DNA of 37,207 nucleotides from a virus. Both the position numbers and the translations under genes were made by a program. Of the stretch, positions 120 through 37,207 are shown piece after piece (within the stretch, counting starts at the first letter, position 1; each line of letters opens with the position of its first letter). The notes below the pieces were generated by a model, which saw only the letters and a list, made by a program, of their open reading frames with translations, made no database searches and was not told the DNA's origin. Location of the stretch: the IMG/VR virus record IMGVR_UViG_3300045988_171829; one strand, 5' to 3'.

Positions 120-443
120 CTACCATCTTTCTTCATTCAATGGAATTTTCTTTTTATATTTAAAATGTTTTTCAGGATGTAGTATATTATGGCATTCATT
201 GCATACAGCCATTAGATTGCTCTTGGTTAATGCTAACTCTGGATGCTTCTTAAGATGTTTTATATGATGAGCTGTAGTAGCTATACCAACCTCGCCCTTG
301 CTCTTGCATATCTGACACTCATTATTGGCTTCGTCCAATACTTCTCTTCTTAGCTTCTTCCATAAACCTGATACATAGAAAGCATGAATATTATTATCTC
401 TTATAAGCTTTGTTATCCAATTTACTAATTCTATTACATCCAT
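120..443 (-). CDS. HNH endonuclease, packaging-associated
   Basis: CQIC...HHIKH...N..AVCNECHNILH is an HNH/zinc-finger motif. It lies immediately upstream (in transcription order) of the cos-like region and TerS, as in HNH-dependent cos phages. Confidence 0.85.
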   Translation of the reverse strand: MDVIELVNWITKLIRDNNIHAFYVSGLWKKLRREVLDEANNECQICKSKGEVGIATTAHHIKHLKKHPELALTKSNLMAVCNECHNILHPEKHFKYKKKIPLNEERW

Positions 444-2548: not shown

Positions 2549-3610
2549 TTATGACACTAATTTTCTATATGAATATTCAACATCTGTTTGTGCTACTTTT
2601 GCATATACACGTAATGTAAGACCAACATCATTATGACCTAAAATTTGCTGGATTACCTCTGGTTTCATACCGCTTCTTAAAGCAAATGTTGCAAAAGTAT
2701 GCCTTAGTGTATGTGGAGTGATTCTCATTTCTATATTGGCCATTTTCTGCATCTTATCCACTATAACTTGATAACCTCTATTATTTAATTTCTTATATAG
2801 CTCTGTATTGATTGATTTTTTCTTTGGTGCCTTTGAAGAACAAAATAAATATTCGCTGATTATTCCTTGCTCCTCACGTTCTCTAAGATAATTAAGTATT
2901 GACCTTTTACATCTTTCTGTAAAATATACTCTTCTTTCCTTATTTCCCTTTCCTATAACTAATAAAGTCTTATGTGTCATATCTAAATCGCTTACCTTAA
3001 CATTACCAACTTCAGCTACTCTACAACCAGTTGATAAGAAAAATTCTAATATTGCTCTATCTCTTCTACTAAGCATACAATCTCTTAACATTTCAACTTG
3101 TTCCTCATTAAGTGGCTTTTTCTCTCTTTTAGGTTCCTTAACTGGCTTTATTGAAGAACATGGATTCTTAATTATAAATTCTTCATTTTGAAGCCATGCA
3201 AAGAATAATTTAATAGGTGTCATAAATGTGTTCATTCCAGCAGCACCCTTGGTACTACTTTCTGCATACATGAACATTTTAATGTCAGCACTTGTAATCA
3301 TAGATACTGGCTTATTGAAGAATTTGCATAATTTTCTTAAGTTATAGCTATAATTCTTTAAAGTAGCTACTGATAAACCTTCAAGCTTTTTAGTCGCTAG
3401 GAAATAGTTTACCTTATCCTCAAGATCACTTGTCACTAATGCTGTTTCTTTTGTAGTAACCTCATACCCATATAAAACTTCTTCTACTAATCTTTTTATT
3501 TCTAGTTGTCTTGGTAGGTTAACCTCTAGCTCTGGAAACTCCATTGTTAATTTACCTATTAATTTTACAGTTACTTCTTCGTTGCAATTTCTATAATTTA
3601 AGTTCTCCAT
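2549..3610 (-). CDS. XerC/XerD-like tyrosine recombinase (full length, 353 aa)
   Basis: N-terminal SAM-like core-binding region. GCRVAEV (Arg), HTLRHTFAT, LGHNDVGLTLRVYAKV (His, Tyr). Confidence 0.85.
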   Translation of the reverse strand: MENLNYRNCNEEVTVKLIGKLTMEFPELEVNLPRQLEIKRLVEEVLYGYEVTTKETALVTSDLEDKVNYFLATKKLEGLSVATLKNYSYNLRKLCKFFNKPVSMITSADIKMFMYAESSTKGAAGMNTFMTPIKLFFAWLQNEEFIIKNPCSSIKPVKEPKREKKPLNEEQVEMLRDCMLSRRDRAILEFFLSTGCRVAEVGNVKVSDLDMTHKTLLVIGKGNKERRVYFTERCKRSILNYLREREEQGIISEYLFCSSKAPKKKSINTELYKKLNNRGYQVIVDKMQKMANIEMRITPHTLRHTFATFALRSGMKPEVIQQILGHNDVGLTLRVYAKVAQTDVEYSYRKLVS

Positions 3611-15277: not shown

Positions 15278-15321
15278 AATTATTTTTGAATAGAAAAATA
15301 TATATTGGCAATAATAAAAAA

Positions 15322-15353
15322 AGAAAGGATAAACTTATTTAAGTATCCTTTCT
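15322..15353. terminator. Bidirectional terminator between convergent parR and the membrane-protein gene
   Basis: AGAAAGGATA (15322-15331) pairs with TATCCTTTCT (15344-15353). A-run upstream and T-rich sequence downstream. Confidence 0.65.
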
Positions 15354-15361
15354 AAAGAGTT

Positions 15362-15829
15362 TTAATTTAAAAGGTTTGTGATTGCACTTATATGCTCACT
15401 TGTTAAAGATGAAGACTTTAAATAGTGATAAATAGCATGGAAGTCATTCGCAAACTTTTTATTTTCTTCTCCTTCTAAATTACTTTCTAAAAAATTTCTA
15501 ATAGCTAAAACTTTACTTCTACTTAATTGTTTGTTTTCTAGTTTAGATCTTATTAATTCTTTTAGAAATAGAAGTTGTATTTCTTTATCAGACTTAGAAA
15601 AATTTAATGATATATTTTCATTTTTTATTTTATAGTTGTTTTTCTTTTCTTTTAGCTGATTTATGTAGTATAGTTCTGGCTTCATATGATTGCATGATAT
15701 TACTTCTTCTGCTGTATATTTTTTATAGGGAATATGTTTTCTAATACCTGTCCTGATTAGAGTAGGTAACATTAATATAACTGCTTTTATTAGCAGAGCT
15801 CCTATAAAGATGGTTAATAAGTTTGTCAT
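15362..15829 (-). CDS. Hypothetical N-terminally membrane-anchored protein (155 aa)
   Basis: LLTIFIGALLIKAVILMLPTLI is a transmembrane segment, followed by a helical Lys/Glu-rich domain. AGGAGTGA RBS. Confidence 0.6.
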   Translation of the reverse strand: MTNLLTIFIGALLIKAVILMLPTLIRTGIRKHIPYKKYTAEEVISCNHMKPELYYINQLKEKKNNYKIKNENISLNFSKSDKEIQLLFLKELIRSKLENKQLSRSKVLAIRNFLESNLEGEENKKFANDFHAIYHYLKSSSLTSEHISAITNLLN

Positions 15830-16108
15830 TTTATCATCACTCCTGTTTTTTTAAATTTCTTCTACCCTTACGGGATAATGCTCCTCCTTTCATACCTCAT
15901 GGTCGTGCCAATCGGTGAGCCTTTTGGCCCTTCTTCTATAGATTTACTAATAATGTTTTGTATAAATTTCATGGATGTTTTGTATAGGTGTTGTCTTTAG
16001 AGTTGAAGTTTTATATTATAATATATGCTTTTTTATTTGATTTAGTACAAGATATTGTATGTAAAAATATTACCCAACAAACTTATAGCTGTGAAGAAGT
16101 AATAGCCT

Positions 16109-16140
16109 AAAAGAAAACCCCCAATAAAAGATATTGAGGG
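16109..16140 (-). terminator. Intrinsic terminator of the FtsK-like/replication-relaxation operon
   Basis: CCCCCAATA (16118-16126) pairs with TATTGAGGG (16132-16140), 8/9 bp. Followed on the minus strand by TTTTCTTTT. Confidence 0.55.
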
Positions 16141-16146
16141 CGTGAG

Positions 16147-16728
16147 TTATGAGAATAAGTGAGTTGATAGATTATCATAATTTAAATCAGTATAGATGAT
16201 CTCGAAGTTCTTACTATTGTATCTTACACCAGGAGTTGGACGAGCAACTATTAGGATGGGAAATGTTCCCTCGCATTTAACTTCTAGTTCTTTATCTCTA
16301 TAAAGTTTTTCGTATAGCTGGAATTTAGTATTTTCCGTATAATGAGTATAATCAACTTCTAAAATAGTAAAATATTTATAACCATCTTTTTTGAATATTA
16401 CAAATGCATCAGCTCTTATTATTCCTTTAAGGTATTTTGGTTGCATTTTAACTTCTACTATTTCACAATCATTAGCTGCTAAAAATTTTAAGTAATCTAA
16501 TGTTATTAAATCATGGTCGCTTATCTTTTTATCTAATATAAAGACTTTTTCTTTACTATAGTTAGATTTATAACTTTTTACTAATCCCATTTTATTTTCA
16601 AGGTCAGATAATCTCCTTCTTGCATTTTCGTACGATTTATTAAAAAATAAATATTGAGCTTGTTTTATAGTTATTCCTCTATATTGTTCTATGTGTTTTA
16701 ATATTAGCTTATCTCTTTGCATTAACAT
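16147..16728 (-). CDS. Replication-relaxation-family-like protein (wHTH + possible nuclease-like C-domain)
   Basis: N-terminal LILKHIEQYRGITIKQAQYLFF...RRRLSDLE is winged-helix-like. The C-terminal ADAFV...ILEVDY pattern is nuclease-like. 7-nt overlap with the upstream ATPase gene. Confidence 0.55.
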   Translation of the reverse strand: MLMQRDKLILKHIEQYRGITIKQAQYLFFNKSYENARRRLSDLENKMGLVKSYKSNYSKEKVFILDKKISDHDLITLDYLKFLAANDCEIVEVKMQPKYLKGIIRADAFVIFKKDGYKYFTILEVDYTHYTENTKFQLYEKLYRDKELEVKCEGTFPILIVARPTPGVRYNSKNFEIIYTDLNYDNLSTHLFS

Positions 16729-18020
16729 TTAACTCTACCTTTCCTTTCATTTCTTTTACTTTCTTTTCTTTCATTCTTAGTTTCCTTTTCTGTTGCAGCT
16801 TCTAAGAAAATTACTTTATTTTTATCTAGATCTATTGGTGTGTGAGTAAACTTAACTTCTTCTACTTCTAATTTTTTTATTTTTTGTTGTGGTTTATGTG
16901 GTTTATTTGGAACTATAATTTCTTTTACATACTTTTGTAGTATTTCATAGTTTTCATCCATTGAAGGGACTTTCACCATATCTAGCCCTTGTGAACCAAA
17001 AATTAAACATTCTCTTTCTTTAAGCTTAACTGCACCTGAATCTTCTATTATATTTTCACTATCTCTTTTAGAACGCTGTCTTAATGTTATACAGCACATT
17101 TGTGATTTGACCTCACTATCAATATTTGCGACAGTACTTCTTTGGGTAACACTAAGGAAATGTACTCCTGCAGCTCTACCAGCTTTAACAATAGTTAATA
17201 TATTCGTCCAACATTTATTTTTTAATTGTTTAATTTCTTCATTATCGCTTTCTTTTGCTATAAAGAATGATATTTCTTCTATTACAAAGTAAATTCTTTT
17301 TAATTTATTTTTGTTATTTTTATTGTAATGACTTAAATTTTTATAGCCTTGTGAATTAAACTTGCGGCATCTTTCATCAACTTTTTTAGCTACTTTTTCT
17401 AGCATTATGCTTACTTCTTCTAAGGTATTACCAACAAACTTTACAGGTTTGCAATTAGAAAATTGACCTATTTCTCCTTTAATAATTTGACTTATATATA
17501 AATCTATACTGTTAGAATTGTTATATATCAAATTTGTTAATATTGAAGATAATAAGAATGTTTTCCCTGTTCCTGTCATTCCCCCTATAAGTATGTGTGG
17601 ATCCTTTTCTATATCTATAAAAAAATTTTTTTCACTAAAATTTTTACCTATAAAAATTAAATTGTTTGGTGATTTTACTGGAATAAAATCATAATTTTTT
17701 AATTCCTCATTTATTACTTCTATTTTAATTAAATCTGTGAATCTTATATCTTCTATTGTTATAATTCCTCTTAAGGAGCTTTCTAGGGAATCAATATGTT
17801 TTTCTAAATCTTTATAACTTTTACCTGCTGGAGATTTAACTGTTAATTCCACTCCATTTTTTATTGGCTTATTTTTTATAATTTTAAAATTAAGCTTTAA
17901 GTTGGCCATTGTTTTATTCCATCTGTAAGCAGTTATGTTTAATCTGTTTAATAAATAACTACTACCTTCTTTTGCTAAAATAACCCCACCAGTTATTAGG
18001 GATAAGCTAATTAAATCCAT
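16722..18020 (-). CDS. FtsK/SpoIIIE/TraB-type DNA translocase-like ATPase with N-terminal membrane anchor
   Basis: Hydrophobic N-terminus LISLSLITGGVILA. Walker A GGMTGTGKTFLL, Walker B YFVIEEISF. FtsK signature GRAAGVHFLSVTQRST...DSENII. Basic C-terminal tail. Confidence 0.8.
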   Translation of the reverse strand: MDLISLSLITGGVILAKEGSSYLLNRLNITAYRWNKTMANLKLNFKIIKNKPIKNGVELTVKSPAGKSYKDLEKHIDSLESSLRGIITIEDIRFTDLIKIEVINEELKNYDFIPVKSPNNLIFIGKNFSEKNFFIDIEKDPHILIGGMTGTGKTFLLSSILTNLIYNNSNSIDLYISQIIKGEIGQFSNCKPVKFVGNTLEEVSIMLEKVAKKVDERCRKFNSQGYKNLSHYNKNNKNKLKRIYFVIEEISFFIAKESDNEEIKQLKNKCWTNILTIVKAGRAAGVHFLSVTQRSTVANIDSEVKSQMCCITLRQRSKRDSENIIEDSGAVKLKERECLIFGSQGLDMVKVPSMDENYEILQKYVKEIIVPNKPHKPQQKIKKLEVEEVKFTHTPIDLDKNKVIFLEAATEKETKNERKESKRNERKGRVKC

Positions 18021-18115
18021 AAATACAACCTCTTAAAAAATATTTCATACTACATTTTATGCTACAGTTTAAAAATAATTACAGTTGGGAAAAATAAAAT
18101 TTGAGGTGATAATTT

Positions 18116-18523
18116 ATGATGGGTAGAACTCATATGGCTATTGGAGTTGCTGTAGCACTTCCAGTAATTAAATATTTAGATTTATCTTATGTTTCTATGG
18201 CTGGAGCTATTGTAGGTTCTGTGGCACCAGATTGGGATTTATATTTAGGAATAAAACATAGAACAATAACACATAGTTTATTGTTTTTATTAATAAGTAG
18301 TGTTTTAGTTGGAGTATTTAATATAGATATGGCTATATTGTGGTTTATAGCTTATGCACTACACCTTATTTCAGATAGTTTTACAAAGATGGGTGTACCT
18401 TTCTTTTATCCATTTGTTAAAAAAAAGTATGGAGCAAAGCTTATTTATGCTTCTGGAGCTGAAGATCTATTTATTTTATTAGTTGCCATCTATATAATTT
18501 CAGAAATGATAAAAATTAAATAA
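18116..18523 (+). CDS. YdjM/DUF457-like membrane-bound metal-dependent hydrolase
   Basis: GRTHMAIG...APDWD...HRTITHS...HLISDSFTKMGVPFFYPF with multiple transmembrane segments. Confidence 0.65.
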   Translation: MMGRTHMAIGVAVALPVIKYLDLSYVSMAGAIVGSVAPDWDLYLGIKHRTITHSLLFLLISSVLVGVFNIDMAILWFIAYALHLISDSFTKMGVPFFYPFVKKKYGAKLIYASGAEDLFILLVAIYIISEMIKIK

Positions 18524-18541
18524 ATTTAGTATTTAAAATAT

Positions 18542-18582
18542 AAAACTGCGTATTTTATCCTAAAAAACTGCGTGATTTATCC
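18542..18582. repeat. Two 19-nt direct repeats AAAACTGCGT(AT/GA)TTTATCC, with an inverted AAAACTGCG copy at 18670-18678
   Basis: 18542-18560 and 18564-18582 (17/19 identical, 22-bp period). CGCAGTTTT at 18670-18678. GAATTG also recurs at 18583 and 18663. Confidence 0.8.
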
Positions 18583-18710
18583 GAATTGCTATTAAATTAT
18601 AATGTTTGTTACTATTAAAGCTAGTAAACAAGCCATTCTTATAAAAAACTTCGCTTTTTCAGAATTGTGCGCAGTTTTATTTTTGCTTTAATAAATTAAT
18701 TATTAAACGT

Positions 18711-20718: not shown

Positions 20719-23049
20719 CTAATAAGATATAAAGCTACCACTTAACCACAAGTTAAATGTCTTACCTGGAACATTCTCTCCTTTAATAGAGAAATTATTT
20801 CCATCTGAATTAGTTCCATTTAAAATTAAAGTTTTTCCTTGTCCATATACATTAGTAACTCTATTTTCTGTTCCAAAGCCACTAAAATAACCTATATTAG
20901 CACAAGTTAATCCATTAATACTAGCTGGTAAACCAATAACTAAATCACCTACTAAGTCACTCCCTAAAGTACCTTTTAATCTTATTTCAAAGTGACATAT
21001 ATTATTCGATAACCAATACTTACCTGTTTGTTCAGTATAAGTTACAGTACCTTGAGTAGTTGTCCCTGCTATTGTAGGTGTAAAAGTAGTATTTGTGATA
21101 ATTGAAGCTTTTTCTAATTTAATCCACTTATTATAGCCAGTTGCATATGCAACATAGATAGTTTTATTAGTTGAATCAATTACTGTATGACCAACACACA
21201 TAGCAGCAAAATCTGGAGCCTTACTATATTCAAACGGCATTTGATAAACTAAAGAATTTGAAGTTATGTTTTGACTTGGTAAAGCTTCTACAAATTGTGG
21301 ATTATAAACTTTAGTAAGTGCCAATCTATCTTTTTCCTCTGAATAAGATTCCATATTCTTTATAAATATAGTTGTGTAATTTCTATTAGGAGTAATATAT
21401 ACACCTAGTCTTAAATGCCTTTCAAAAGCTTCCTCAACTACAACAGAAACACTTACATATTTATCTGATTTACTATGTCTTAAGAAGTTATAATTAACTT
21501 TAGCAGTAGTAAATGTAGGTGTAGGTCCAAATGAAGATAATCTAAATTCACATTTAACGTGTGCTTGATAACCTTCTTTTTCATTATTAGTAGTAAACAT
21601 ATCAAACTCAATTCCAAAATCTTTAGATGTAGCATAATAATAATCAAGTTCAGCTATTTTAGCAAAATGACTATTATGAGTAGTTCCATCATTTACAACT
21701 CTAATTTCATTTTTTATTATTTCACCTTCATTATTAATTCTTAAGAATTTGCCATTTGAATCAGCTTGTCCAATATCAATTATGTTTTTATTTGCATTAA
21801 ATCCATCTCTAGCGTTAACTATATCCATTCCTTTATCTTTTGCATACTGAATTACTTCAAGCATATCAGCTACACCAGTATTGCCATCTTTAAAAGCATC
21901 ATAATGGCTATGTTGAACAAATACTAACCATAAATTATTTTCATAAGCGTAATCTATATCTGCTTTCATATCTTCTTTAGTTATAGCGACATCATTGTAA
22001 GTTTCACCTATACCATATCTTCTCCAAATTTTATAATTAGACATATAATCCATTTTGCCTAATCCTGTTACTGGATCTTCTACATTGTTTATAAATTTGT
22101 TTCCAGTAGCAAATAAATTATCATAATATTCTCTAGCAACTTTTTCTATTGTAGGATTTATACATCCGAAAGGTGCTATATAAATATCATCATCAAGATT
22201 ATGCTCAATTAATGCTTTCTTTGCTCTACCAAAGCTTTCGTGCATTTCATCTTCTGTTGAAGCTGTTGCATTTATATGGTTAGCACTATGTGAACATACT
22301 GTCCATCCTGCTTCTTTAAGTTCTTTTGCTTGTTCCCAAGTAATAAATACTTTTTCTTTTGAAATATTATCTGTTATTAATGGAGTTGTACAAGGTACTC
22401 CAGCAACTTTAAATATTTTTTCATAAAATACAGTATAATCAGTTAATTGACCATCATCAGTTATAAAAGTAACCATTGGTCTTGCTATAATTCCTGTATT
22501 AGCAGTTTTTTCAGTTAAAATACTTTTCATATTCATATTTTGTTCCAATTGTTCGTCAATTTTTTTTACTTTTGTAAGTAAATTGACTTCTCCATCTCTA
22601 GCTGCAGCTATTTCATTTTTATAATTATCATATTCATTAAGAGATGCTAGTCCATTTAAAAGTGCTGAAAATTCATTTGTTGATACAATAGCATTTTCAG
22701 AATTAATACTTTTCTTAACATCCATATAAAAGACATTAGTTGTTAATTTTTTATCCCCTTCAATAACCATTAATTCTAACTTTAAAAGCCCTGGTACTGC
22801 AAGCATTTGATTTGTAAGTTCAAGAGTACAATATCCTTTAACCCTGTCATTTATAATTAAATCATTAAAAACTTCTTTACCATCTGGTTTAGTTGCAAAA
22901 ACCTTCACACTTCTATTTTCTAGACTAAAAGGAATAGCTCCATCTAACAATTGAAAAAGCAAGAATCTACTTTGAGTATCTCCTTGTTTGGCTGTTAAAG
23001 TATCATATAGATTTCTATTTATATCTAACTTAACTATTTTCGTATTCAT
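20719..23049 (-). CDS. Receptor-binding/baseplate protein: BppU-like N-domain + CE4 polysaccharide-deacetylase-like domain + C-terminal fibre/lectin-like domain
   Basis: The ATG at 23049 lies 7 nt after GAGGAGG. N-terminus MNTKIVKLDINRN...GDTQSRFL. CE4 motifs ITDDG, HSANH and IAPFG. Confidence 0.75.
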   Translation of the reverse strand: MNTKIVKLDINRNLYDTLTAKQGDTQSRFLLFQLLDGAIPFSLENRSVKVFATKPDGKEVFNDLIINDRVKGYCTLELTNQMLAVPGLLKLELMVIEGDKKLTTNVFYMDVKKSINSENAIVSTNEFSALLNGLASLNEYDNYKNEIAAARDGEVNLLTKVKKIDEQLEQNMNMKSILTEKTANTGIIARPMVTFITDDGQLTDYTVFYEKIFKVAGVPCTTPLITDNISKEKVFITWEQAKELKEAGWTVCSHSANHINATASTEDEMHESFGRAKKALIEHNLDDDIYIAPFGCINPTIEKVAREYYDNLFATGNKFINNVEDPVTGLGKMDYMSNYKIWRRYGIGETYNDVAITKEDMKADIDYAYENNLWLVFVQHSHYDAFKDGNTGVADMLEVIQYAKDKGMDIVNARDGFNANKNIIDIGQADSNGKFLRINNEGEIIKNEIRVVNDGTTHNSHFAKIAELDYYYATSKDFGIEFDMFTTNNEKEGYQAHVKCEFRLSSFGPTPTFTTAKVNYNFLRHSKSDKYVSVSVVVEEAFERHLRLGVYITPNRNYTTIFIKNMESYSEEKDRLALTKVYNPQFVEALPSQNITSNSLVYQMPFEYSKAPDFAAMCVGHTVIDSTNKTIYVAYATGYNKWIKLEKASIITNTTFTPTIAGTTTQGTVTYTEQTGKYWLSNNICHFEIRLKGTLGSDLVGDLVIGLPASINGLTCANIGYFSGFGTENRVTNVYGQGKTLILNGTNSDGNNFSIKGENVPGKTFNLWLSGSFISY

Positions 23050-25465
23050 AATTAACCTCCTCACTTAAAGGTGCTTCTTCTGTTTTAAATTCTTTTCTTA
23101 AAAGTGAAATATCAATAGATATTTCAATATTCATTATCAACTCTCTATCTGTCTCTATTGTAAATCTAGCATCTTCTTCACTAGTTATTGAGTAATCCCC
23201 AAAACCTTTCTTAGCTACCCCTATTATTCTGTAATTACACCCTTTATACTTATTAGGGATATTTAATATTATTTTATTCCCTATACTTCTAATATCTTTA
23301 TAAATATATCTTATTGTATCTTCTTCGCAGGATTCTAAAGCTGTAACACTTGCAGCACTTCTACTATCTAAATTTGCATAATTATTAGTTAAATTTGAGT
23401 TTTGAATATTAATATTATGCAAAGTATATCCTTTAAAATTCCAATTCCCATAACTCTCAAATAAATCTCCTGTTCCAGATGGAGGTGATTCATGGATTTT
23501 TAATCTTGTTTTTAAAGCGGTTCCTGATTTATAACCAAATTCAAGTCCATTATCTCCATATATGCCTAAATAATTCCCTGATAAATTCATAAATTGATGG
23601 TCTATACCTGAACTTTTTATATTTAAGCTATTTTTTATAAATAATGGATCGTATATATACATCCCTGCATCAGAAAAAGGAAGCCCTGCAGATTCAGGCA
23701 CACCAACTGGTACGAAATAAGCGGCAGCTCTTATAGTTCCATCTTCTTTTTGATATCCTATTTGAATGTAATCACCATATCCAGATGTACATATACTAAC
23801 TCCATTTTGATTTCTATCTTTTGCAAATGATGTTGCTATTATTTTAGCTACTTCCTCCATACCATTGTTAGCTGAATTAGTTGTTACCTTAATACCGCCT
23901 TTATCAATGCTTATGCCTTCATTTCCATTTGTGTGAGATAGAATTAATTTCCCATCAATTAGCTTTAATACATCAGCAAAATTGAAAGTACCATCATCCA
24001 TGTTTATCCACGTTTTTTCATTCATGCTCATTAACAGTCCTGATTTAATTCTATCTGCTATCATACTTCCTGCAATTATCATATCAGCAACAAATCCTTT
24101 AGCTGTACCAAATGTTCTCCAATTCCAAGTCCCATCTGCATTTAATTCATCAGCTATCATAAATCCTTTAGTTCCAATTGCCATAGCTCCATATAAATCA
24201 CCTGGCACCTTACACTCAAATAAAATAGCAGTTCCATTATGTTTATCAGCACTATCTACCATTGCTCTCATATTATTATTTAATAAATTAATAGTGCCTT
24301 CTAAATAACTTGATAATAACCCATTTTCATTAAAGAAACTATCTAGTTTAGCCTGAGTATTTTTTATTATTAGTTGATTATCAGTTAAAGTCCCAAATTT
24401 ATTTCCAAATGTATAAGTAGTATTTAATGGATTTAAAAAATCAATGGCGATTTCTATTATTCTAAATCTTTCATCTACATTAAAAATCTTACATTTTATA
24501 GGGACTTCATCCCCTAAACTAAATTTATCATATTTAATGTCAATTTCATGCATATCAGCAATTTTCATTTTTAAACTTCTTCGTGGTTTAGATATTTCTT
24601 TAAGATATTCTTCACCTTTTCTTTTTAAATTACTAGCTATAGTTACATCATTCCATGTTTCTGTAGTTTCTATTAATCCATAAACTTTTGCTGCATCCTC
24701 ATTAATTAAGTAATCTTTATCATCATTAACTTCATTTATGGTTAATCTATTACCGACTTTACTTTCCTCGCTACCATCGGTTTTACTTGCCCCTAGTGGT
24801 ATTAATTTAGTGTAAATTCCAGTTGTATCACACTCAGTTTGATAATCAAGCATATTCTCTCCAAATACAATTTCTTGATTGCTAACTTTTCCTACGTTAA
24901 GTAAATAATCTAAATATTTTTTACCATCTATTTTTCTAAGCACAAAAAAACCACCTAATCTATTAGGTAGTCTATCTAATAATAAAGTTAATGTATTTTC
25001 ATAGTCTGCAGTTCTATACAGATTTGCAGTTACCGTTACATTCCCCAAATATATCTTTTTATAATCCTCAACTTGATTATTATGTTCATCTAAAATCTCC
25101 TTTAGAAAATCTTTAACTGAATAGTCATGCCATTCACGTGGCCTTATTGTTGTGTCATTTAAATATGCTAACTCTCCCTCAAATATTAATATTTTTGATA
25201 ATCCATTATTAAAACTATCACTTGGATTTATCATTCTTCCATAAAAAATCTCTATTCCATTGTGATCTTCTATCTTAATATGACTTACTAGTTCATAAAA
25301 TTCATTAAATGCTTTATTGGTCACTGGAACTTCTATAGTTACAGACGGCACTCCATTAAATCCAAATTTCCCTTTTGCTGATAATATTTTAGGTGCTTCT
25401 GGATCATTTGAAAAATGGTGAAGCAGTATTTCTTTATCATCATTAATTAATGTTATTTTATACAC
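23030..25465 (-). CDS. Tail-associated lysin-like / prophage-tail endopeptidase family protein (Tal)
   Basis: 811 aa directly after Dit. The N-terminal region is typical of siphovirus Tal. Call rests mainly on position. Confidence 0.7.
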   Translation of the reverse strand: MYKITLINDDKEILLHHFSNDPEAPKILSAKGKFGFNGVPSVTIEVPVTNKAFNEFYELVSHIKIEDHNGIEIFYGRMINPSDSFNNGLSKILIFEGELAYLNDTTIRPREWHDYSVKDFLKEILDEHNNQVEDYKKIYLGNVTVTANLYRTADYENTLTLLLDRLPNRLGGFFVLRKIDGKKYLDYLLNVGKVSNQEIVFGENMLDYQTECDTTGIYTKLIPLGASKTDGSEESKVGNRLTINEVNDDKDYLINEDAAKVYGLIETTETWNDVTIASNLKRKGEEYLKEISKPRRSLKMKIADMHEIDIKYDKFSLGDEVPIKCKIFNVDERFRIIEIAIDFLNPLNTTYTFGNKFGTLTDNQLIIKNTQAKLDSFFNENGLLSSYLEGTINLLNNNMRAMVDSADKHNGTAILFECKVPGDLYGAMAIGTKGFMIADELNADGTWNWRTFGTAKGFVADMIIAGSMIADRIKSGLLMSMNEKTWINMDDGTFNFADVLKLIDGKLILSHTNGNEGISIDKGGIKVTTNSANNGMEEVAKIIATSFAKDRNQNGVSICTSGYGDYIQIGYQKEDGTIRAAAYFVPVGVPESAGLPFSDAGMYIYDPLFIKNSLNIKSSGIDHQFMNLSGNYLGIYGDNGLEFGYKSGTALKTRLKIHESPPSGTGDLFESYGNWNFKGYTLHNINIQNSNLTNNYANLDSRSAASVTALESCEEDTIRYIYKDIRSIGNKIILNIPNKYKGCNYRIIGVAKKGFGDYSITSEEDARFTIETDRELIMNIEISIDISLLRKEFKTEEAPLSEEVNYEYENS

Positions 25466-34942: not shown

Positions 34943-36599
34943 CTAACTCAAAATCATTTATATCAAATGACTTTGAGCAATCCTCTAAATCATTTGAACC
35001 ACACATAGCTGCAACAAAAGCTTTAAATCCATCAGTTTTTCTACTTTTAGGTTCTATTTTCCCATAGGTCATATTTCCAGCTTGTGAAGTTATTAAACAA
35101 GTATTATTTGTATACCATCTCATTAATGGATTATCTCCAAAAATAATATTATGATTTGCAAATGCACTTGTTATCACTGGAGATATTAACATTTCATTTG
35201 ATGGTCTAACTAATCTAATATTGTTATTACCTTTTTTATCAGTATCAAAGCCTACTTCTCTCAACGCCTTTGCTAATAATGTATATCTATAGTTATCCAT
35301 CCACAATGTAGTTAAATTGTATTTTTTAGCTTTTTCAGCTAACCACAAAGCTGGAGTATCTGGTGGAACTTCTGGTCCAGGTACAAAAGTTAAATACCCT
35401 TGTTCCTCCCACTCCCTTAGAGGAGCCTTTATTCTTCCTAAATCATTACAACTTTCACAAACCCAGCTATGAGTTATCCATACAAATTTTTCTTTATACT
35501 TAAATAATAGACCTGCAGCAACAAAATCTGTTGTCTTTGCATAATCAATCCCAACTAAACAACTTCCTCCTTCTACATTAGGAATTTCTTGATTAGTCGC
35601 TAATATATTTTCCCATGATGTAACTTCTACATCTTTATTCCCCTTTGGTATATTCATTCTTTTAGTCATAAATGATGAATTACTTATAGGATCTTCTTTA
35701 TAATCTACATACTCTCTTTGTATTTGTTGTTGTAAATCTGGAAATCTATGCAAACTAGGATTAGGTTTATCCCACATTTTAGGATCATCTACTTCCTTTT
35801 CATCATCAAGTTTACATATAAATGGAAGTAACCCGTTATCTCTTGTAGCACCTTGTAATATCTGTTTGCTTCTTTCAATAAGCTTATCTAATGGACCTTC
35901 TCTAACATCCCCATTTGTAGTAATAATAGTTGTCCTTGGATTCTTCTTTTTACCAAGTCCAGTTTTAAAAACTTGAATAGTTTTATAGTCCTCATATTGA
36001 TGATATTCATCGAAATCAACCTTACCTTGTCTACCACCATCTTTAGTCTTTGCATTTGATGTTCTAAATCTTAATTCTGAACCACTTTTTTTATTTTTTA
36101 TTACTTCTTTATTCCAATAAAAATGTTTTTCTAATTTCTTCTTGTTAGCTTCAAGAACATCATAAACATCATTAAAAGATGTCATAGCTTGGTCTTCACT
36201 ATTCGCACAAATATCTATATGGTATTTATCAACTTTGTTATATTGAGATATTAAGCAAAAATCTTCAAATGCCAAGTAACCATTTTTACCTGCTCCCCTA
36301 CCTACTAATATGAATAGGTCTGGCCATCTTAATATACCTGGTTTAGAATAAGTACAATTATGCAGTGTAAAACAAAATACTTCCCATTCTAATAATTCAA
36401 ATGGAAAATATTTCTCTAAACTTAAATATCTTCTTAATTCTTCTTCATCTACAAATAGACTTTCTTCTTTAAAGCATTTCTCTACATAATCAATTAATTG
36501 TAATTGTTCCTTGCAAACTTCTATTGTCCCACTTCTAACCAATTCAATATAGTTTTGAATTTCTGGTATATGACTACAATTCATCATCATCATCCCCAT
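34926..36599 (-). CDS. Terminase large subunit
   Basis: 557 aa. Walker A-like VGRGAGKNG and a C-terminal RNaseH-like nuclease region. Confidence 0.9.
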
Positions 36600-37086
36600 T
36601 ATCTAATGGGCTTGGTTTTATTCCTAAATCACCTAATAGTTTAAGCATTTGGGCACTTGTTTTATTTAGTTCAGCTATGCTGTCATTCTTCTTTATACCT
36701 GTTTGTTTTCCATTACTCCATTCAACAGATACTCCACGCTCTTTTATATCTTGAATTAAATTATTTTTAATATTCCACAACTCCATATAATCATTAACAA
36801 GATCCTCAAAATGTTTTCCAAATGTTTTATTATTCTCTAATTGTGTCATTAAATCTTTTCTAATTTCTAAAAAAAGAGTATTTCCCATATACTGCATACT
36901 ATTTTTATTGCACCCATATTTTTGTATGCTTTCACGCTTCCAACCGTATCTTTGCTTCCAAGATTTAACCGTATTTATAGATACATTATATTTTGTAGAA
37001 ATATCTATATACTTCATCCCAAGATTATAGTCTTTTTCAGCACTTTGCCTTATTTTTAATCTTTCATTTTCATTCATATTCACCAC
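36574..37086 (-). CDS. Terminase small subunit (N-terminal HTH + P27-family-like C-domain)
   Basis: [21 protein letters not shown] is an HTH. The C-terminus DYMELWN...[10 protein letters not shown]...[11 protein letters not shown] resembles the P27 family. Confidence 0.8.
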
Positions 37087-37100
37087 CTCATTCCCCTAAT

Positions 37101-37126
37101 ATTGCATACTTTTTTTTGTATGCAAT
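37101..37126. repeat. 9-bp perfect inverted repeat ATTGCATAC-T8-GTATGCAAT just upstream of terS
   Basis: Read directly. It spans the start of the terminal overlap. Confidence 0.85.
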
Positions 37127-37207
37127 ATCCCCCCCTCACCTAAAAGTATAAAAAAGTTGTTTTGTCCTCCCTCTTATACCGTTCTCTCCTAGTCAAAAGT
37201 TTTTTGA
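37109..37207. repeat. Second copy of the 99-bp terminal segment (= 1-99)
   Basis: Identical sequence at both window ends. Confidence 0.95.

Follow-up and report, generated by a model that had tools for sequence, protein, structure and literature searches.

An FtsK/TcpA-type ATPase and a relaxase-like partner form a conserved module of a Clostridium phage-plasmid and of mobile elements in endospore-forming Firmicutes

The DNA analysed here is the virus record IMGVR_UViG_3300045988_171829, a stretch of 37,207 nt (the window, to which all coordinates refer), and the subject is a minus-strand operon located between its partition and lysis modules which encodes a 432-aa ATPase and a 193-aa protein called here the partner. 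An earlier note on this DNA had described an operon of two genes with ribosome-binding sites, a 7-nt gene overlap and a terminator of its own, and all of these are present: RBS-like AAGAGG and AAAGGAAAGG stand ahead of the two open reading frames (ORFs), the ORFs share ATGTTAA, and a terminator-like hairpin closes the transcript (three terminator-like sites were observed in the operon region versus 1.0 expected). When the ends of the window are compared, nucleotides 1-99 are identical to nucleotides 37109-37207, which leaves 37,108 unique bp, and the window is therefore a complete circular genome of 37,108 bp with no host flanks. Since a protein identical to the window's partner is also encoded in Clostridium sp. 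K13 (37.9-kb scaffold) and Clostridium sp. D53t1, "Clostridium phage-plasmid" is a fair description of the element. The features of the locus are as follows.

16722-18020, minus strand: gene of the FtsK/SpoIIIE/TcpA-type ATPase, 432 aa (PF01580, phrog_1358, TcpA sequence and fold matches)
16147-16728, minus strand: gene of the partner, predicted winged helix and PD-(D/E)XK, 193 aa (AlphaFold2 (AF2) model, conserved residues, divergent PF13814)
16117-16141, minus strand: intrinsic-terminator-like hairpin closing the two-gene transcript (10-pair stem, 5-nt loop, then TTTTCTTTT)
15955-15987, minus strand: direct copies of TTATACAAAAC, 22 nt apart (15955-15965 exact, 15977-15987 with one mismatch)
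15362-15829, minus strand: third gene, membrane protein of 155 aa with a single transmembrane (TM) segment and a promoter-like site of its own
18116-18523, plus strand: gene of a membrane metal-dependent hydrolase of the YdjM family, oriented divergently to the FtsK gene (PF04307, E 1.1e-23)
18021-18115, no strand: divergent control region of the FtsK operon and ydjM, 95 bp

The larger protein had been taken for an FtsK-type ATPase, and hidden Markov model (HMM) searches agree. It matches PF01580 of Pfam with an E-value of 5.7e-15 (55.8 bits, gathering cut-off 24), which makes it a member of the FtsK/SpoIIIE family, and phrog_1358, "FtsK/SpoIIIE-like", with an E-value of 1.7e-51, while its best sequence matches in the PDB are the four TcpA entries of pCW3 (6o1w-z, E 1.4e-15). 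TcpA is also on top when its AF2 model is searched with Foldseek (E 1.4e-24, target-normalised TM 0.66-0.76), the FtsK motor is second (E 6e-21), EssC/EccC and HerA are much weaker and the HerA-nuclease complexes lie at about 1e-7. The Pfam, PHROG and TcpA matches are far stronger than chance would give. The motifs GGMTGTGKT (Walker A), VIEE (Walker B) and GRAAGVHFLSVTQRS are all found in the translation, as is ADAF...EVD in that of the partner. The model (predicted local distance difference test, pLDDT, 81.7) consists of a confident alpha/beta motor at about residues 45-365 and a tail disordered from about residue 365-383, with no gamma domain. The basic tail that had been read from the sequence is real, with 18 K/R versus 11 D/E in the last 62 residues, and it ends in a conserved basic motif K/R-K-G-x-I whose G428 is invariant in 43 homologues. 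The hydrophobic N-terminal anchor fared less well: a stretch exists, but it is weak (best 19-residue Kyte-Doolittle mean 1.17, not above internal core segments), it is modelled as a long helix with a pLDDT of 49-59, and it is absent from some homologues.

The ATPase shares with the SpoIIIE/FtsK translocases the motor fold, the Walker motifs, the arginine-finger region and sporulating hosts, but it is not an FtsK or SpoIIIE proper, as it has neither the gamma domain nor the polytopic (four-TM) N-terminal membrane domain and long linker of these proteins, and scores 30.7 bits against the NCBIfam FtsK model, whose cut-off is 1566. Against plasmid_TraB of the same collection it scores 22.4 bits (cut-off 800). 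Both in sequence and in fold its FtsK-like soluble domain is nearest to TcpA of C. perfringens pCW3 (PDB 6O1W-6O1Z), likewise an alpha/beta motor without gamma, at about 20% identity. TcpA, however, possesses N-terminal TM domains, omitted from the solved construct (residues 102-530), which have no convincing counterpart in the window ATPase; its system includes a Tcp/FA-type type IV secretion system (T4SS), of which the window has none, and its relaxase is the tyrosine-recombinase-like TcpM and not a PF13814 protein. The observation that terminase and ParM/ParR are present while T4SS and Tcp genes are not was borne out in the complete circular genome, where no VirB4- or Tcp-like genes were found.

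The partner had been proposed to consist of a winged-helix N-terminus and a nuclease-like C-terminal half, and structure prediction supports this with high confidence (pLDDT 94.1): the AF2 model shows a winged helix at residues 1-65 followed by an alpha-beta-beta-beta-alpha-beta nuclease core, a BamHI-like PD-(D/E)XK. H72, D107, E124, D126, H129 and Y139 are invariant in 35 close homologues, and H72, D107 and E124 are conserved in more than 90% of 122 distant ones. The model combines a winged helix with a PD-(D/E)XK domain carrying a predicted acidic metal-binding triad whose third residue is D and not E. No match to the partner was found in the PDB by sequence, and its fold matches to solved structures are generic PD-(D/E)XK or winged-helix ones only, all with E-values of 5.7e-3 or higher.

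Sequence comparisons place the partner as a divergent branch of PF13814, that is, as Replic_Relax or MOBC-relaxase-like. The "replication-relaxation-like" label of the earlier note thus holds in part: the window protein itself misses PF13814, but its orthologues and profiles link it to this family, and the assignment comes through them and not through the window protein's own score. Of the 122 family members 46 match PF13814 at E<=1e-3; a C. perfringens orthologue 52% identical to the partner scores 33.2 bits (cut-off 25.3), gp68 of Bacillus phage Gemini 46.5 bits over its full length and the fusion protein P0093 39.4 bits. With the TraX homologue of pAM373 as comparator for the MOBC family, hhalign aligned the partner family to the TraX-like family with an E-value of 1.1e-4 and 56% probability, pairing H72 with H102, D107 with D152, E124 with E170 and D126 with E172. 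PF13814 is the signature domain of MOBC relaxases such as pAD1 TraX and CloDF13 MobC (PMC5357655, PMC12857230), in which a winged helix at the N-terminus is combined with a BamHI-like D-E-E site (PMC5357655, PMC3424549, PMC12857230, PMC6736028), and in this family D-E-E coordinates the metal within a BamHI-like fold (PMC6736028). For this reason the partner is a relaxase-like candidate, and the statement that the element has no relaxase of a known family has to be revised, as the candidate is the partner itself.

The likeness to pAD1/pAM373 TraX and CloDF13 MobC extends over the N-terminal winged helix, the BamHI-like PD-(D/E)XK domain and the aligned H, D and E-x-(E/D) columns. The partner is nevertheless shorter than these relaxases (193 versus about 260 aa), has D-E-D instead of D-E-E, and offers no clear match to Y181 of pAD1 TraX, which is essential for transfer. 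MOBC relaxases of streptococcal integrative and mobilisable elements (IMEs) accompany VirD4, whereas the partner accompanies an FtsK/TcpA-type ATPase. The direct repeats to which TraX binds lie away from nic, and the window has direct repeats near the partner gene. Judged by their sequences, the two proteins of the module are of the same two types as Firmicute relaxase/coupling-protein pairs.

The survey of the pairing gave a uniform result, with an FtsK-like gene directly upstream of the partner homologue in all 23 loci; a profile search of the whole library found 726 relatives. Among these, about 12 natural fusion proteins of 612-676 aa, one of them in the C. massiliamazoniense chromosome, carry the FtsK part at the N-terminus and the partner at the C-terminus, so that the winged helix follows the motor in the same place as gamma does in FtsK. 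Because of this linkage and of the fusions we consider the ATPase and the partner to be functionally coupled.

The unit is larger than the two genes described originally, since a conserved membrane protein and frequently a YdjM hydrolase accompany the pair. The 155-aa membrane protein has a strong N-terminal TM segment (19-residue Kyte-Doolittle mean 2.49) followed by a basic stretch, has homologues at every clostridial locus, whether on plasmids, in prophages or in phage LPCPA58, and is encoded downstream of the partner in 18 loci. It matched no Pfam, NCBIfam or PADLOC family and is a candidate for the membrane tether of the module. In about 15 loci a ydjM gene is no more than about 1.5 kb away from the pair, and its orientation differs from locus to locus. 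A G+C-rich stretch of about 75 nt, GGGCCAAAAGGCTC..CCCGTAAGGG, is located in the 5' leader of the membrane-protein gene (15835-15945, minus strand) and is conserved in close relatives; a structured RNA in it is not supported, because no Rfam match and, among four relatives, no covariation or compensatory changes were found. In Gemini (L012, 8655-9068) the gene after the pair encodes a pilin-like two-TM protein with a sub-threshold match to T4SS_pilin (E 0.013), in contrast to the single-pass protein of clostridia. This product, gp69, was considered as a homologue of the clostridial membrane protein and rejected, as there is no homology.

The spacer between the partner gene and the membrane-protein gene carries a conserved DNA motif. 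In the loci scanned, exact copies of TTATACAAAAC occur only in this spacer and only on the coding strand, even where the encoded proteins share as little as 43-60% identity, and CAAAAC is present in 8 of 10 independent spacers versus a mean of 1.4 and a maximum of 5 after shuffling. Several loci have further phased repeats of 11-12 nt of their own, located upstream. From their sequence and position the TTATACAAAAC repeats could be the site bound by the winged helix of the partner, or else an operator of the downstream gene. We also considered that the two copies might serve as -35 and -10 boxes of a single promoter; some loci have just one copy. In the 95-bp control region at 18021-18115 the promoter scan listed a sigma-70-like site for the ydjM side only, and no Spo0A box was found there.

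The pair is already annotated, as "FtsK/SpoIIIE + replication-relaxation", in about 105 phage records and about 144 plasmids, and the window is a further clostridial member of a known but uncharacterised module. The phage records with partner homologues number 105 (Bacillus 97, Geobacillus 6, Staphylococcus 2) and include Gamma, Fah, Wbeta, Andromedavirus and the podophages of B. megaterium; four Clostridium phage records also have a partner homologue, and c-st, D-1873 and LPCPA58 possess the pair. Of the roughly 144 plasmids 124 are from Bacillales (Bacillus, Priestia, Brevibacillus, Geobacillus, Cytobacillus) and 20 from Clostridia. All named host genera are endospore-formers with the exception of Staphylococcus (the two phage records), and no record from Listeria, Streptococcus, Lactococcus or Enterococcus matched at the thresholds used; a narrow-alignment scan of a genome collection returned Clostridium loci only and is no gauge of taxonomic breadth. 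Andromedavirus, which carries the pair, has neither integrase nor repressor in the flanking 14 kb and is apparently non-temperate. At the DNA level no match to 15300-18600 was found among 50,697 phage records.

The earlier note did not recall this combination as characterised in a virus. It is in fact annotated in the phage records from Bacillus and Geobacillus as well as in the three clostridial phages just named, and has been noticed in a phage-plasmid of B. tropicus, though we found no experiment on it in the literature. The pair was described as an operon in the B. tropicus plasmid prophage (PMC11526630) and, for Andromeda-like phages, listed under the genes of "plasmid replication and segregation" (PMC9658697); homologues of spoIIIE are enriched in phages of spore-formers, for which spore entrapment was proposed (PMC10294663). 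The pairs of Firmicute phages and plasmids (Andromedavirus gp67/gp68, Wbeta wp22/wp23, Gamma/Fah, Pagevirus, c-st, LPCPA58, RBClin15) are of the same families, in the same order and with the same overlapping junction, while the clostridial branch differs from the phage copies in sequence, the motor being 22-38% and the partner about 30-40% identical.

The module is found on elements of diverse types. In more distant copies it is carried by the group III neurotoxin phage-plasmids and phage c-st, by the C. perfringens phage LPCPA58, by a C. botulinum prophage, where it is linked to a serine recombinase and lies between the lysis and lysogeny modules, and by integrase-linked chromosomal elements with adjacent tyrosine integrases and an IME-like layout. 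Further copies of this kind are present in C. perfringens plasmids without annotated phage genes. One such plasmid, the 31-kb CP197731.1 (L006, 4355-8117), encodes besides the module a relaxase of the MOBV type (Mob_Pre) and a coupling protein of the VirD4/TraG type, and has therefore two potential DNA-processing systems on one replicon. A chromosomal element with the module (L029, 6998-8979) is integrated directly beside spo0A, the gene of the master regulator of sporulation, with the integrase adjacent to spo0A. Among related phage-plasmid contigs near-identical copies of the module stand beside different types of Rep, Rep3 or DnaA_N-type: the blocks of FtsK, partner, membrane protein and ParMR are near-identical whether the initiator is a Rep3_N/Rep3_C protein (L002, L003, L005) or one with a DnaA_N match (L004; 12598-13866 in the window), which indicates recent replicon swapping in this phage-plasmid group.

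The anatomy of the module, the fusions, the membrane partner and the conserved motif on the element's own DNA lead us to propose, tentatively, a device that nicks and pumps self DNA, with the forespore as the most likely destination; we regard this as a possible reading, the better one of those considered here, and not as a probable one. Nicking, recruitment, tethering and destination are what we infer from the observed folds, motifs, gene linkage, fusions, DNA motif and host distribution. The winged helix of the partner would bind a cognate DNA site of the phage-plasmid, for which the TTATACAAAAC repeats just downstream of its gene are the best candidate, and the BamHI-like D-E-D active site would nick or cut there, as MOBC relaxases do at oriT. 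The FtsK/TcpA-type ATPase would be recruited to the nicked site, assemble as a hexamer and translocate the DNA, with the conserved single-pass protein positioning the motor at the membrane, perhaps aided by the motor's short N-terminal helix. A copy of the low-copy phage-plasmid or phage genome might in this way be delivered across the sporulation septum by what would be an element-specific SpoIIIE. The forespore is favoured because the window has no T4SS, because the module occurs in apparently non-temperate Bacillus phages and because the hosts in the collections searched are almost all endospore-forming Firmicutes; it is solely the distribution that suggests this destination, and it leans towards spore inheritance, the second function put forward in the earlier note, rather than conjugation. 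The complete and sequence-addressed form of the proposal, a "private SpoIIIE" in which a PF13814-like nickase opens the DNA at TTATACAAAAC and a tethered motor pumps a copy through the sporulation septum, is a little more doubtful than the general one.

Several observations weigh against nicking and pumping into the forespore. The window's partner has no match to PF13814 at E<=0.1, and the profile link to TraX has a probability of only 56%. SpoIIIE and FtsK are targeted to septa by a polytopic N-terminal domain, which this motor lacks. No Spo0A box, sporulation-type signal or shared motif was found upstream of the FtsK gene in 17 loci, and the TTATACAAAAC repeats may be no more than a promoter or operator serving the membrane-protein gene. 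The module is also carried by integrated prophages and by integrase-linked islands, which would be pumped together with the chromosome anyway, and a closed circle would somehow have to be threaded through a completed septum. The host-range pattern may in part reflect the sensitivity of BLAST and gene flow among related phages, and the literature contained no experimental study of any member of the module that we could find.

By analogy, the closest functional precedents would be the relaxation of CloDF13 and the TraB-clt system of Streptomyces. Two atypical mobilization proteins are reportedly involved in CloDF13 relaxation, to go by the title of a work of Nunez and de la Cruz from 2001, the PF13814 member MobC being one of them. 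TraB of Streptomyces is an FtsK-like pump that carries its winged helix in cis and uses it to recognise the repeats of clt, and in this comparison the module resembles TraB-clt with the Spd spreading proteins in having an FtsK-like pump, a putative winged-helix sequence reader, short cis repeats and small membrane proteins. The roughly 12 fusion proteins have TraB's order of motor and then winged helix; in the window the winged helix is in trans, on a protein of its own that also contains a nuclease domain, a domain absent from TraB, and the hosts of the module are unicellular, unlike Streptomyces.

Of the other explanations helper-dependent conjugative mobilisation, a variant of the capsid-independent transfer put forward in the earlier note, survives best, although we consider it unlikely. 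Here the partner would be a MOBC-type relaxase acting at an oriT near its gene and the ATPase a coupling protein docking on the T4SS of a co-resident plasmid (for example one of the Tcp type in Clostridium), so that the element would spread free of the capsid. The nearest characterised relatives of both proteins are indeed conjugation proteins, TcpA and TraX/MobC, and the order of coupling protein and then relaxase is that of integrative and conjugative elements and IMEs (PMC5357655), to which the layout of the chromosomal copies beside tyrosine integrases also corresponds. Mobilisation has been proposed for small plasmids of C. perfringens that carry ftsK/spoIIIE genes (PMC10210947), CloDF13 offers the precedent of a MOBC-family relaxase working with a second atypical mobilization protein, and the gene after the pair in Gemini has its weak T4SS_pilin match. 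However, the window has no T4SS, its motor is without the N-terminal membrane domains left out of the TcpA construct, and the MOBC relaxases of streptococcal IMEs pair with VirD4 and never with TcpA. All 20 clostridial plasmids with the module were typed as non-mobilisable, and CP197731.1 possesses its own MOBV relaxase and VirD4-type coupling protein besides the module. Moreover, conjugation makes little sense in the roughly 105 Bacillus/Geobacillus phage records, the apparently non-temperate Andromedavirus among them.

An accessory role in replication or segregation is less probable still. The partner would nick to prime rolling-circle or late replication, or mark a site, and the motor would clear, decatenate or resolve DNA at the closing septum in the manner of FtsK-XerCD, the winged helix replacing gamma, as its position after the motor in the fusion proteins would fit. 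Both in the window and in related elements the module adjoins ParM/ParR and Rep, two tyrosine recombinases are present on the element, the FtsK gene of phage Fah is expressed as a delayed-early gene (PMC4113786), and the partner is annotated as "replication initiation protein" (phrog_2190, E 8e-6) or "plasmid replication-relaxation" in phage records. This label, though, traces to the name of the family and not to experiment, and an FtsK-Xer role needs neither a conserved nuclease site nor a dedicated membrane protein. The type of Rep varies beside near-identical copies of the module, and a separate Rep or replisome stands beside it in every examined element with identifiable replication genes. 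We therefore rejected an essential replicon function of the pair; in the window the module is not the element's replicon, because the 422-aa Rep, ParM/ParR, DnaD-like and DnaC-like loaders and SSB are all encoded separately.

Exclusion or defence, the third function put forward in the earlier note, in which a membrane-associated FtsK/HerA-type ATPase with a PD-(D/E)XK nuclease would attack or expel foreign DNA and protect the lysogen or the infecting phage, has the smallest chance of the readings weighed: the pairing resembles HerA-nuclease complexes (fold match E of about 1e-7), Can2 and the DdmD nuclease show a weak resemblance to the nuclease domain, the ATPase matches the SspH and mad8 models of PADLOC at about 1e-12, and in Wbeta, the C. 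botulinum prophage and the window the module lies between lysis and lysogeny modules, a frequent site of lysogen-expressed accessory genes, but the PADLOC search yielded nothing positive for defence, its ATPase matches being judged generic P-loop similarity, the partner and the membrane protein match none of the 5027 models of PADLOC-DB v2, no known or candidate anti-phage system in that database had all components matched, the motor is far nearer to TcpA/FtsK than to HerA, and the conserved motif that the element itself carries beside these genes is easier to reconcile with recognition of self than of foreign DNA.

Few "odd" genes of Bacillus phages are noted as often as those of the FtsK/SpoIIIE type, which are also located on the C/D neurotoxin phage-plasmids of C. 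botulinum. The constant pairing of the motor with a MOBC-like nuclease, the natural fusions, the conserved third gene, the frequently linked ydjM, the conserved TTATACAAAAC motif and the near-restriction to elements of endospore-formers found here turn these genes into a testable model. If delivery into the forespore is true, it would explain the spore inheritance of low-copy phage-plasmids and phage genomes and have a bearing on how stable toxin phages are and how phages persist. In its sequence-addressed form it would mean a capsid-independent intracellular DNA transfer made from conjugation parts, which would give the plasmids and phage-plasmids of Bacillus and Clostridium, and even their virulent phages, a way into the spore. 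If instead the module works with a helper T4SS, phage-plasmids would gain a second, capsid-free way to spread.

The remainder of the genome is organised as follows. Rfam gave no family in the window, with two matches around the operon, both at chance level, and all ORFs longer than 500 aa encode tail proteins, the tape-measure protein or TerL. The plus strand at 11-15.3 kb encodes XRE repressors, the Rep-like protein with its C-terminal DnaA_N match, ParM and a ribbon-helix-helix ParR, and the lysis, tail, capsid, portal and terminase genes occupy 18.7-37 kb. The early genes on the minus strand of the first 10.8 kb are those of an HNH endonuclease, two tyrosine recombinases, SSB, the DnaC-like and DnaD-like loaders and an anti-repressor. 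The two recombinases lie at 1159-1701 and 2549-3610 on the minus strand; one is full-length, with 353 aa and a SAM-like N-terminal domain, and the other is a catalytic domain only of 180 aa; on a plasmid-like element with ParMR they may serve multimer resolution instead of integration. The HNH endonuclease gene (120-443, minus strand) adjoins the terminase genes across the circular junction (small terminase gene at 36574-37086), a layout typical of HNH-assisted cos packaging. A 781-aa BppU-type baseplate/tail protein (20719-23064, minus strand) contains a polysaccharide deacetylase domain (PF01522, E 6e-12), which, judging from this match, could be a receptor-modifying activity.

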